A DNA stretch of 64,000 nt from an uncultured Reyranella sp. GTDB taxonomy: Bacteria; Pseudomonadota; Alphaproteobacteria; Reyranellales; Reyranellaceae. The number at the start of each line of letters is the position of its first letter. Position 1 is the stretch's first letter. Below, piece after piece: positions 57,001 to 64,000 of the stretch. The DNA is taken from NCBI GenBank assembly GCA_964415585.1, contig CAYQAY010000001.1, positions 70,008 through 134,007 on the forward strand. The letters are read 5' to 3'. Position numbers: made by a program.

Positions 57001-60000
57001 CAGCGATCGACGATCGGCTTGACGCGCTCCAGGAAGGCATGAGTCAGACGGCCCAATACCTCCGGATCATTGTCGTGCGACCGAAGTCGTATGAGATGGG
57101 CCAGGGTTTCGAGACGCCACTCGCGGCTAGGCCACTGATTGTGGGGCAGGCACCGGGCCACGGAAATTTCGGCCTCGACGCTCTGGTGCCGGCAGTAGGG
57201 CTCGCCCGCCTTGGTGCGACAGGTGAGCGCCGCCGCTGTAGGCGGCGGCTCATCCTGTGTCGGACCCGACGGGAGCTTGTTCATGCGGGGCTCAAGACGA
57301 CCTTCGGGCCCACCGGAAATCGGCCGAGAGAATTTTTTTTGCCGCCCTACGGCTAATATCAGTCATCGCCCGCCGTCCAAGAGAGTTCAAGTGCTTAGCT
57401 GGCGGGGGATAGTCATCGTTCCGCACGCAAAGTCCAAAGTGGCACTTCGCCGCTAGGTTGAGTCCTATTTCGCCACCACAGCCAATGACGAGTCAAGAGA
57501 AGGAATTGAATCGCCACCAGAGCGCCCACCACCTCCCTATAGTTCGGGCTCAGCTTGGCCGAGCAGCCGTTGCGCTAAGGGAGGCACTGCCTCGGGTCGC
57601 ATCCGGTCCGAAGCGAAGCCCACCGCCAGCAGCTCACGAGGCAGGTAAGGGTCGTACTTCTCGTGAATGAGGTTTCCGACGGTCAACGCCAGATAGACAG
57701 CATCGGGCGCCGGCGCCTGCTCGAAGCTGCGCAGTGCCGCGACGACCTTATCTGCCGGCGTGCGGTCAGCTTCTAGCACCACCCCGCGCGTTGAGATGAC
57801 GAGCCCGCTGCCTTTGAGGGCCAGCGCCAAGGTACCGAGCGCCACCGAGCCGGCCCACGGAAAGAGAAAGGTATCGCCGTCGATCTCGACGATGTTTGAC
57901 CGGCGCAGGCCAAGTCGATCAAATTCACCTCTGGCCTCGCCAAGGAGGCGTGCGGCAGTTTCGTCGAGAAAAGACGGCACGTCAGTGCTGAGGTAGACCT
58001 CTCGCATCTCCGCCGCGACGACGTCATGCATGTCGCCGCCCTCTCCCCCGAACATGGGCGGCACACCCAACCGAGAGGGGCTTACCACCACGACCTTCTC
58101 GCGATCCCTGACCTCAATCACCTGCCAGCGCCGCCCTGAGAAGATGATGGTCATATCGGGGACTAAGACCGTGAGTATGGGCAGTGTCCCCAGTTCCCTT
58201 TCTTCGCAAACGACACGAAACTCGTCGGGGCTCTGAAACACGGCATAAAAGTCGTAGTGATCGACAATGCGCTCCCCGACTTCGCCCAACAGCAGGGTGC
58301 CGTCGGGGGCTTGTTCGATGAGTCGATTCTGCTCGTCGCCGAGCGCGCGCAAGATGCCCGCAAACACGTCGGGTGAAACTGCCGCAAAGGCCCCACGTTT
58401 GGCCAAAAGCTCATAGGCCCGGGCGGCGGTGATCCCGCCATATTGCGCGATTACGGCCAAAACTTGCTGCGCCAGGGTCGATAAGTGAAGGGCATCAACA
58501 CGTGGCGGCTCGCACCACCGCCTTGCTAGCAGTTGCACCATGGCGATGGTCTGAACAAGCTGACAGCGCAGCCTGTCAGCCGGATGAAGGTCATCTGAAA
58601 GCTGTCGCTCGGGCACATAGAGCCTGATCACCGCCGGCTTATCGCCGCGCCGCCCCGACCGCCCAAGGCGCTGGCGAAGCGATGCGACAGTCCAGGGTGC
58701 CCCGATCTGGGCCACGTTCTCGACGGCGCCGATGTCGATGCCGAGTTCGAGCGTCGAAGTACATACCGCGCTGGTCGGCAGCTTGCCCTCTTTCAGCCGC
58801 TCCTCAACGAACTCCCGATGTGTGCGACTAAGATTGGCATGATGGGCAAAGAATTCCTCCGGCACGCCCAACTTTTCTGACGCTTGGCGCAGCAAGTCGG
58901 CATAGGCTTCGACGTTGGCCCGCGACCCGGCGAACACCAGCCCGTTTTTGCCCCTGAGGGTTTCGAAGACGTGGCCCGCGATCTGCCGCATGTAGAACAG
59001 GTCATCTTCTTCATCAGCGTTGGCGTCATTATCAGATCCCGGAGCCTCATTCTTCTTTTCATAGCCACGCACTTGCAAATGCACGGTCGCTCCACCGGAC
59101 GCGCTCTCCAAGATCACGACATCCTCGCCCCCGCCCGGTCGCAAGAACTCGGCCGCCAGGCCCATGTCGCCCAGTGTGGCCGACAGCCCCACCCGACGCA
59201 CCAGCCGGCCGGTCGCGGCTTCAAGCCGGTGAAGCAACGACTGCAGCTGCTTGCCCCGTTCTTGGCCGATAAAGGCATGCAGTTCGTCGATGACAACGAA
59301 CTCAAGAGTTGAGAAGAGCGCCGCAACCTCGGCGCCACGGCGAACGAACAAGGCCTCCAGAGACTCGGGTGTGATGAGCACTATCCCATCGGGCTGCTTG
59401 CGCGCCCGCGCCTTGCTCGATGCCGAGACGTCGCCATGCCACCGATAGACCGGCAGTTCAGCCAATTCGCAGAGCTCATCGAGACGCCTGAACTGGTCGT
59501 TGATCAGTGCCTTCAACGGGCTGATGTAAATCGCCTTGAATCCATGCCCAGGCGCATCGGCAACACGAGAGATGATGGGCAGAAAAGCCGCCTCGGTCTT
59601 ACCGCCCGCTGTCGCGGCTGCGATAATAATGTCGGCCTCGGTATCCAGAATCGCCGGTATGGCCTGTTCCTGAATGTCGCGCAGCTCGCGCCAGTCCTTT
59701 TGCCAGATCCACCGCCTGACCGGCTCGCTGAGGCGGTCGAAGGCGGTAGACGACTGGTCAGAGCTTGAAGGCGGTGAGCTGGTCGCCACTGGTTGCCCCC
59801 TGCCCAGCCGCGGACGCTACGGTCGCCGCCAGCTCGGCCTCGTCAGGCGTTGCCGTCGTGATCTCAACGCCGTCTAGCAATGTCTGCCACTGCGTGCCGG
59901 GGTTCTGCTCAAGCACCGACAGCAGATTGACGAACGCCGTCACCGTGTTGCGAGGTGTGCGAAAGTACGCATCGCCGATCTTCAGCGAGCAGTGCGTCAT

Positions 60001-63000: not shown

Positions 63001-64000
63001 ATGGGTAGTAGGGAACACTGGGTGCCAGCCCTCTTGGATCGCTGACCGAGAGGGTGGGGTTGATGAGACAATTGTCGACCCCGCCCCCGTCTTGGCGATC
63101 AAGTTCCTTGCCAACATAAAGCAGGCCGCCTTGAAGTTCATAGCCAGCAATCGTTAGCGACCTACCGGCTCTAACCCAGCAACGCTCGCTTTGCTCTTTC
63201 AGAGTACTTGCTGCGGGACTAGAAAAGGTGGGTGGTGGTCGACGTGGCGACACGGGGTCGCTTGTGACAACAATTCTGAAGCCGCCACTCGGCGCGTTGG
63301 CATGGCTCTGCGGCTGGCTGACAGTTTGCTGCGGCGCCTTGTTGCGCCGACGCCAAAGCACCACGCCAGCGACGAGGAGCGCCAGCAGGAAAATCCACGC
63401 ACTCCCATTGCTACCGTTGTCTCGGGCTGGCGGCGGCGTAGCCGGGGCTCGCTGCGTGGTACCGGCTGGGGTTTGCGGGCTCGGCGCTGATGGGTACTGA
63501 TAGGGGGGAGCTGGCTGAGCCTGAGGTCGGACAGCAGGCGTTTCGAGGCGAGGAGCTGGCGATACTTCAGTGACGGTTAGCGCCCGCAAAGTGGGTGCGT
63601 CAGCGATTCCCGTTACTACCAATCCGCTCTTCCGCTGAAATTCTTCGAGTGCCGCCTTGGTGCGAGGCCCCATGATGCCGTCAATTGAACCGACATCGTA
63701 GCCTTTCACCTGCAAGGCACGTTGTACCGCCCGGAGCTCCTCCTGCGAATCTTGCGCCTTGGCGGCCGTCAATGCAGCGGAGATCAGCGCCACATGAAGC
63801 AGCGCCATGGCGCCCCACAACAAGGGCCGCCACCTCAATCTGTGCATTAGCCAGAAAGCTGTCCCCCCAGTCACGCCCGCCCCCGGCACCTCTCGGTTGC
63901 AGGCATGCTACATCAATCGCATCGGACCATCTATTCGCGTGGGCGCCTTCGGGAGTGGCCGCGGATGCAGCACCAGAAGCGCGGAGCTGAAAGTTCTTCG

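Follow-up and report, generated by a model that had tools for sequence, protein, structure and literature searches.

Here, we describe a three-gene cassette at the end of a 64,000-nucleotide stretch of DNA from an uncultured Reyranella sp. (contig CAYQAY010000001.1, positions 70,008 to 134,007; the whole stretch is termed the window, and all coordinates refer to it unless another contig or locus is named). To judge by homology, this cassette encodes all components of the anti-phage system Shango (SngABC), and the first of its products, SngA, is predicted to be anchored in the inner membrane and to expose a peptidoglycan (PG)-binding head to the periplasm. The explanation that best accounts for the whole, to which we assign a probability of roughly 0.7, is that an integrative conjugative element (ICE) of a Reyranella-like alphaproteobacterium carries this Shango cassette as cargo within its defence island, and that SngA serves it as an envelope-tethered platform for SngB and SngC. 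Shango is already known; a wall-tethered subtype of SngA and the generality of SngA anchoring appear to be undescribed so far, and no mention of a transmembrane (TM) anchor or a PG-binding head of SngA was found in the literature searched.

Identity and conservation of the sngABC cassette

The cassette lies on the minus strand and consists of sngA (61085..63889), sngB (59758..61092) and sngC (57537..59789). The open reading frame (ORF) of sngA has a GTG start and 934 codons (912-934 aa, depending on the start chosen) and encodes a predicted bitopic membrane protein; sngB encodes a P-loop ATPase of BrxD type (PF10923/DUF2791; 444 aa) and sngC a superfamily 2 (SF2) DExH helicase resembling the Lhr core (750 aa). 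Consecutive genes overlap, sngA and sngB by 8 nt (61085-61092) and sngB and sngC by 32 nt (59758-59789), and the ORF positions agree exactly with those given in a first-pass annotation of this DNA. A promoter and terminator scan of the operon found nothing beyond chance.

All three proteins find their best PADLOC match in a Shango model. The SngA model aligns with residues 205-923 (5.4e-89; profile positions 24-518 of 528), while the 444-aa and 750-aa proteins match SngB and SngC at 5.3e-175 and 1.3e-273, respectively; the second choices, BrxD for SngB (1.8e-45) and BrxHI for SngC (1.4e-123), are far weaker. On this basis the triad is identified as a Shango system. It has an SngA with TerB_N, TerB and TerB_C domains, an SngB ATPase and an SngC helicase, encoded by adjacent, co-oriented genes in the order A-B-C that is also seen in the E. 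coli and Klebsiella example loci. The Shango systems of E. coli and P. aeruginosa PA14 share with it the gene order, the TerB_N/TerB/TerB_C protein, the PF10923 ATPase, the Lhr-like helicase and PADLOC models that match end to end, and they likewise sit in defence islands and mobile elements. All the domain calls of the first-pass annotation are confirmed by Pfam, but its view that no function had been defined for the triad by experiment has been overtaken: in 2022-23, P. aeruginosa and E. coli were both found to be protected from phages by Shango.

Shango was described as a three-gene system of a TerB protein, an ATPase and a helicase that shields P. aeruginosa PAO1 from several phage families, with changes in efficiency of plating of 10-100-fold and strong protection in liquid culture (PMC10250203). 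Protection in E. coli was reported in parallel in a preprint by Millman et al., which also suggests 'membrane surveillance' as the role of TerB-containing systems (10.1101/2022.05.11.491447). A 2025 preprint states that it is unclear how TerB proteins convey protection, and a 2026 review still lists the mechanism of Shango as unknown; no dedicated mechanism or structure paper was found in the literature searched. We infer by homology that the cassette described here protects against phages.

The neighbourhood of the genes was surveyed in one genome per species, and the 80 best loci were analysed. Relatives of SngA are encoded in at least 579 species-representative loci, and 72 of the 80 carry sngA-sngB-sngC in the same order and on the same strand; contig ends cut most of the other eight. 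The recurrence of this order argues that sngABC are no chance ORFs, and the conservation of the neighbourhood, which the first-pass annotation had proposed to check, is borne out. Across the 80 loci, identity to the window proteins is 58-92% for SngB, 45-91% for SngC and 33-84% for the SngA core; for most of them the values are only about 35% for the SngA core and near 65% for SngB. SngA is the fast-evolving partner, as might be expected of a phage- or envelope-facing component. Its closest relatives come from an uncultured alphaproteobacterium and from metagenome-assembled genomes of Reyranella, and its core is only about 31% identical to that of enterobacterial SngA. A match to E. coli sngA is present in 492 of 5,426 complete E. 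coli genomes (~9%). Among the loci compared, no fourth gene is conserved on either side of sngABC, which form a mobile module complete in itself. Two small ORFs downstream of sngC were considered as partners and rejected, as they have no homologues beside other sngABC loci.

Four of the loci are irregular. In one (L045, 9992-12709) about 2.7 kb is inserted between sngA and sngB, and in another (L019, 10091-12786) the sngB match is stretched over about 2.7 kb; L047 and L055 have a truncated sngB and no sngC, despite available flanking sequence. These are possibly decayed or interrupted copies of Shango.

SngB belongs to the Pfam family PF10923 BrxC_BrxD, formerly DUF2791 (6e-150), with a Walker A motif GDYGAGKT (K68) and a Walker B motif VVLLDE (D244 E245); a solved structural relative was looked for and none was found. 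SngC matches the Pfam families DEAD and Helicase_C and retains SF2 motifs I (GGKT, K64), II (DELH, 168-171), III (SAT, 203) and VI (QRLGRSGR, 373). The AlphaFold2 model of SngC has a predicted local distance difference test score (pLDDT) of 86.7, and its best Foldseek match, over the whole length, is the Lhr core of M. smegmatis (5v9x; 797 columns, E 1e-30), with MrfA as the next best. All four domains of the Lhr core are matched by SngC, which keeps all SF2 motifs but lacks the long C-terminal extension of Lhr and shares its operon with genes for a membrane protein and an ATPase. A nuclease concealed in the C-terminal half of SngC was considered and rejected, as the entire chain superposes on the Lhr core; in none of SngA, SngB and SngC can a nuclease, toxin or pore domain be recognised.

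Helicase phylogeny groups SngC with BrxHI, DruE and DpdJ (PMC12278908). The accessory proteins BrxD and BrxHI of type 2 bacteriophage exclusion (BREX) thus share their ATPase family (PF10923) and helicase clade with SngB and SngC, a kinship that the first-pass annotation had pointed out and that the secondary PADLOC matches uphold. Together with the Pfam name of PF10923, these matches would fit a reading in which the locus is a fragment or accessory module of type 2 BREX and not a stand-alone system, but this is very improbable. The Shango models score far higher, the constant partner in the 72 intact loci is a gene for a TerB_N/TerB_C membrane protein, and the BREX core genes were not found nearby: a scan of ORFs from 29.5 to 57.3 kb and of the 4.5 kb upstream of sngA on contigs with an identical sngC revealed no PglX, PglZ, PglW or BrxC-like gene.

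The predicted exported head, membrane anchor and cytoplasmic body of SngA

Compared with canonical Shango, the window SngA has an additional exported module of ~160 residues before its TM helix, comprising a signal, a PG_binding_1 domain and a proline-rich spacer. A hydropathy scan identifies a hydrophobic segment at residues 23-41 (63767..63823, minus strand, as are all SngA features) that is likely a Sec signal peptide or signal anchor. It ends in AAKA, followed by QD, which places an A-x-A motif after the hydrophobic core, and with a start at ATG 63847 it is preceded by the basic residues HRLRWR. The PG_binding_1 domain occupies residues 49-104 (63578..63745; Pfam 7.4e-17, above the 23-bit cut-off) and is predicted to be periplasmic. 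It has sequence matches to SleB and SltB2, and its AlphaFold2 model fits the wall-binding domains of SleB, SltB2/3, CtpB and phage endolysins with a Foldseek root-mean-square deviation of 0.5-1.0 A. Both the fold and the DG..G..T and TG..D..T repeats of the family are present; the canonical motif GYD.G..DG..GPRT..AL..FQR..GL..TG..D..TL is kept across 67 heads, and the extracytoplasmic site is predicted from the hydrophobic flanks and charge bias. The head is followed by a disordered proline-rich spacer at residues 109-161 (63407..63565; pLDDT below 50). In head-bearing relatives, the linker between PG domain and TM helix has a median length of 57 aa and is 20% proline; the ~55-residue spacer is predicted to be long enough to reach the sacculus.

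The TM helix itself spans residues 164-183 (63341..63400), where AlphaFold2 builds a helix, the hydropathy scan marks its second hydrophobic segment of SngA (160-178) and the basic stretch RRRNK follows; the same scan finds no hydrophobic segment in SngB. The positive-inside bias is pronounced, with an average of 4.5 lysine and arginine residues per 12 aa after the helix versus 0.8 before it, and holds in 48 of 49 head-bearing relatives. In the AlphaFold2 model of SngA (mean pLDDT 82.5), the PG domain is confident and the body (~220-770) very confident, while the juxtamembrane segment 184-214 has low confidence and is probably disordered. SngA is accordingly predicted to be a bitopic inner-membrane protein with a periplasmic head and a cytoplasmic TerB body; hydropathy, charge bias and the structural model together lend good support to this topology, which the first-pass annotation had proposed.

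Could the head be an annotation artefact, the product of a wrong start codon or of a fused upstream gene? There are three candidate starts for sngA (GTG 63889, ATG 63847 and TTG 63823), an uncertainty of up to 27 codons; the last, which gives 912 aa, is the choice of gene callers on contigs with identical sngC, and the window holds only 111 nt of sequence upstream of the gene. These points leave some room for an artefact, but the hydrophobic export segment and the PG domain are kept under every candidate start and no stop codon lies between the head and TerB_N. In comparisons with three relatives, the ratio of non-synonymous to synonymous substitution rates (dN/dS) is 0.13-0.15 in the PG domain, close to that of TerB_C (0.14-0.22) and slightly higher than that of TerB_N (0.07-0.14). 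Independent gene callers include the head, and the same architecture recurs in proteins of many genera down to about 31% identity. With a dN/dS of ~0.14 and every start retaining it, the head is, by all signs in the sequence, translated and under purifying selection, and an artefact is hardly credible.

The frequency of the head, which the first-pass annotation had left to be established, can now be given. It is present in 16 of the 80 best species loci, exclusively in Alphaproteobacteria and in every case with sngB and sngC following in the order A-B-C on one strand; the taxa include Reyranella, Rhodospirillaceae, Azospirillum, Hyphomonas, Henriciella and Rhizobiaceae. In a library clustered at 50% identity, 47 of the 150 nearest clusters carry it. 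The examined E. coli SngA lacks the head, unlike the window protein, as do all copies in plasmid records with an SngA match (0 of 680). In a neighbour-joining tree of the SngA core, built without support values, lineages with the head occupy six or more separate positions and frequently branch early. Nine relatives with long N-termini were sampled for other wall-binding heads (LysM, SPOR or OmpA-like), and none was found; one of the nine carries DUF3320. Alternative N-terminal modules do occur among SngA relatives (P0024, P0052, P0062, P0066, P0106 and P0164), namely TM2 (PF05154), DUF533 (PF04391), DUF805 (PF05656) and DUF3320, and several relatives have heads of 300-550 residues without any Pfam match.

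A single hydrophobic helix at about residues 3-25 forms the N-terminus of most headless relatives, and basic residues come after it in 80 of 102 cases. The N-terminus reads MELLNFLAAIFVIYLLFFRKKKRK in SngA from a Klebsiella IncF plasmid (769 aa; locus L081, 6719-7120) and MELWIFIVAIYLIYILFFKKKKTK in SngA from an E. coli chromosomal island (locus L086, 5501-5800); in both, the hydrophobic helix is followed by KKKK (four to six basic residues). As in the window protein, SngA of E. coli and Klebsiella is thus predicted to be membrane-anchored by a TM helix and polybasic stretch. Since most headless proteins start with a TM helix, membrane anchoring looks general for SngA, and the PG head would be an elaboration that entails no change of compartment.

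The predicted cytoplasmic body begins with TerB_N at residues 242-438 (62576..63166; Pfam 1.5e-50), which contains the most conserved motif of the SngA family, GYVFLYFYGLERR; Y294, R306, W312, G333, E335, R337 and E353 are invariant in alignments of the domain. An unnamed alpha/beta middle region follows at residues 441-640 (61970..62569), with a pLDDT of about 90-98 and no Pfam match. The TerB domain itself (residues 650-753; 61631..61942; Pfam 6e-8), for which Foldseek returns the TerB-like structures 2ou3 and 2h5n, has both ADG-x5-E acidic motifs (D658/E665 and D730/E737), and the four acidic residues are conserved in alignments. TerB_C (residues 789-925; 61115..61525; Pfam 1.3e-33) is joined to the body via disordered stretches at 781-799 and 824-853 in the AlphaFold2 model. 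Foldseek finds no fold match in PDB or BFVD for TerB_N, the middle region or TerB_C.

TerB domains with conserved acidic motifs, membrane association and the 'membrane surveillance' hypothesis are shared by SngA with Bunzi, Dionysus and the TerB of ter operons. In Bunzi and Dionysus, however, TerB is paired with TM or pore-forming proteins and not with an ATPase and a helicase, while the TerB of ter operons is a small soluble or amphitropic protein without TerB_N and TerB_C. The ter operon partners TerC, TerD and TerZ are absent from the neighbouring ORFs scanned, where the TerB domain of SngA is the sole Ter element.

A proposed SngA platform, and the head as a possible tether or sensor

In the mechanism that we propose, SngA would be an envelope-fixed platform that holds the SngB ATPase and the SngC helicase at the inner membrane face, where phage genomes enter the cell. 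SngC, a 3'-5' translocase/helicase of Lhr type, would be licensed by SngB and have phage nucleic acid, either incoming or in early replication, as its direct target. Most Shango systems would be anchored by no more than a TM helix at the N-terminus of SngA, which would here be reinforced by a PG tether: the proline-rich spacer would let the head reach and hold the sacculus, immobilising the complex relative to the cell wall.

Several points weigh against this mechanism. Membrane insertion and signal-peptide cleavage are predicted solely by rules of hydropathy and charge. Of the 150 nearest clusters, 41 have neither a TM helix nor a PG domain; truncated gene calls account for part of these, but Shango may be able to do without the anchor. 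Validated Shango systems protect only modestly and may do so directly or by abortive infection, so that action on entering DNA is the conjectural step of the scheme. Protection by alphaproteobacterial Shango is, in turn, read across from other systems.

The first-pass annotation had suggested a different role for the head, that of a sensor of envelope perturbation. In such a model, phage injection would cleave or distort the wall locally, the binding state of the head would shift, and the TM helix would relay this to the TerB modules, perhaps through altered clustering or mobility, switching on SngB and SngC. The architecture allows such a relay, with a wall-binding domain outside, a TM helix and a conserved cytoplasmic body; the head is under purifying selection and is retained in scattered, often early-branching SngA lineages; and 'membrane surveillance' has been proposed for TerB systems (10.1101/2022.05.11.491447). 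A precedent exists in Zorya, in which a PG-binding membrane complex senses phage invasion and recruits effectors that act on DNA (PMC11946911).

The likeness to Zorya is by analogy only: a periplasmic PG-binding part in the inner membrane would be combined with cytoplasmic helicase-type effectors and early action on phage DNA (PMC11946911), but the two systems have no sequence or fold relationship. Zor models are absent from the PADLOC matches of SngA and SngB and from the best 25 of 65 matches of SngC. A long coiled-coil tail extends from ZorAB, a proton-driven motor of 5:2 stoichiometry, whereas SngA passes the membrane once, with a single TM helix after the head, and has no channel. The Zorya effector ZorD is a nuclease, while Shango has no recognisable one. 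The wall-binding domain of ZorB is OmpA-like and does not belong to PG_binding_1.

The lack of an ion-channel or motor component, unlike Zorya, speaks against a sensor, as does the form of the linkers. Both segments that flank the lone TM helix (109-161 and 184-214) are probably disordered and would be a poor route for conformational signalling; they are no less compatible with a tether than with an allosteric relay. Furthermore, a periplasmic domain is missing from most Shango systems, among them the enterobacterial type with its experimentally shown activity, which means that the family cannot rely on the head as a sensor for its core mechanism. On account of the linkers and of the active enterobacterial systems, within the Shango reading, the tether is for the present ranked over the sensor: we hold the tether at somewhat short of even odds and regard the sensor as unlikely. 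That the head genuinely senses local breaching of the wall, SngA acting as a single-pass, wall-tethered transducer that switches on the ATPase and helicase at the site of entry, is slightly more doubtful again.

Genomic setting and significance

The window is occupied mostly by an ICE, the backbone of which lies at 12908-43671. This region encodes TrbE/VirB4, a type IV coupling protein, a relaxase with DUF3363, RadC, a YspA/SLOG protein, a Toprim protein with DUF7146, a ParB_N protein, a 1466-aa Strawberry-notch-like helicase and a pair resembling SbcC and SbcD (an 891-aa SMC-type ATPase and a Metallophos protein). The defence island at the window end consists of the SbcCD-like pair, a PD-(D/E)XK protein, BilABCD, a fusion of M78, UvrD and PD-(D/E)XK domains, and Shango.

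The Bil (bacterial ISG15-like ubiquitin-conjugation) system is complete (49546-52411, minus strand; PADLOC 6e-48 to 1e-154) and comprises the ubiquitin-like BilA (51923-52411), the E2-like BilB with DUF7665 (51427-51918), the JAB protein BilC (50955-51434) and the E1-like BilD (49546-50997). On the same strand, the genes for two large nuclease-domain proteins flank it. The first (52508-55855) encodes 1115 aa in which an M78/IrrE-like peptidase is fused to a UvrD helicase and a PD-(D/E)XK nuclease; the second, across the Bil genes from it, encodes a large PD-(D/E)XK protein (46830-49706; a 958-aa ORF, 894 aa as called elsewhere). The two could be an AddAB-like or defence helicase-nuclease pair that was split by insertion of Bil. 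Between sngC and the UvrD fusion are two minus-strand ORFs (55852-57284; 263 aa, and 257 or 214 aa) without a Pfam or PADLOC match.

Two contigs of metagenome-assembled genomes with identical sngC (GCA_021733485.1 and GCA_020062845.1; locus L082, 194-4231) extend upstream of sngA and carry an 80-aa ORF, an AbiEi/AbiEii toxin-antitoxin pair of defence type and a large serine recombinase there. The recombinase side, beyond the window end, is probably the boundary of the mobile element. The G+C content is 0.59-0.62 over the cassette (58001-64000), compared with 0.64-0.71 in the ten preceding 2-kb intervals (38-58 kb); two further 2-kb intervals (26-30 kb) are likewise near 0.61. The low G+C content of the cassette is consistent with a separate horizontal acquisition of Shango.

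This setting raises the possibility that sngABC work for the ICE and not in phage defence: at the mating pore they might process or exclude DNA in transfer, and the head would position the complex near the type IV secretion channel. Genes for a relaxase, a coupling protein and VirB4/TrbE are at hand in the window, conjugative plasmids make up 541 of the 680 plasmid records that match SngA, and SngC is a DNA translocase by type. Nevertheless, a role in conjugation is improbable: the cassette travels independently of particular conjugation genes, its neighbours are not conserved, and here it stands among other defence systems, Bil and AbiE. Shango is also found in chromosomal tRNA-Phe islands of E. 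coli and in a core defence hotspot of P. aeruginosa (PMC10250203), and the phenotype measured elsewhere is anti-phage (PMC10250203; 10.1101/2022.05.11.491447).

An envelope-tethered Shango platform, carried as cargo of the ICE, remains the reading that we prefer. Shango is widespread and experimentally validated, so clues to its mechanism matter. The predicted anchoring of SngA as a rule, together with a selectively maintained PG head in a sizeable alphaproteobacterial branch, places Shango at the cell envelope and suggests that the system works there. If the head is only a tether, this would amount to a modest architectural note on a known system. If it is a sensor, this subtype of Shango would be a second envelope-surveillance immune system after Zorya, mechanistically different from it, and the head would open a first way into the mechanism of Shango and of the domains TerB_N and TerB_C. 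The bare TM anchor and the wall-tethered anchor form a natural pair of variants, with which it can be asked whether Shango needs attachment to the envelope for localisation, for sensing or for both.

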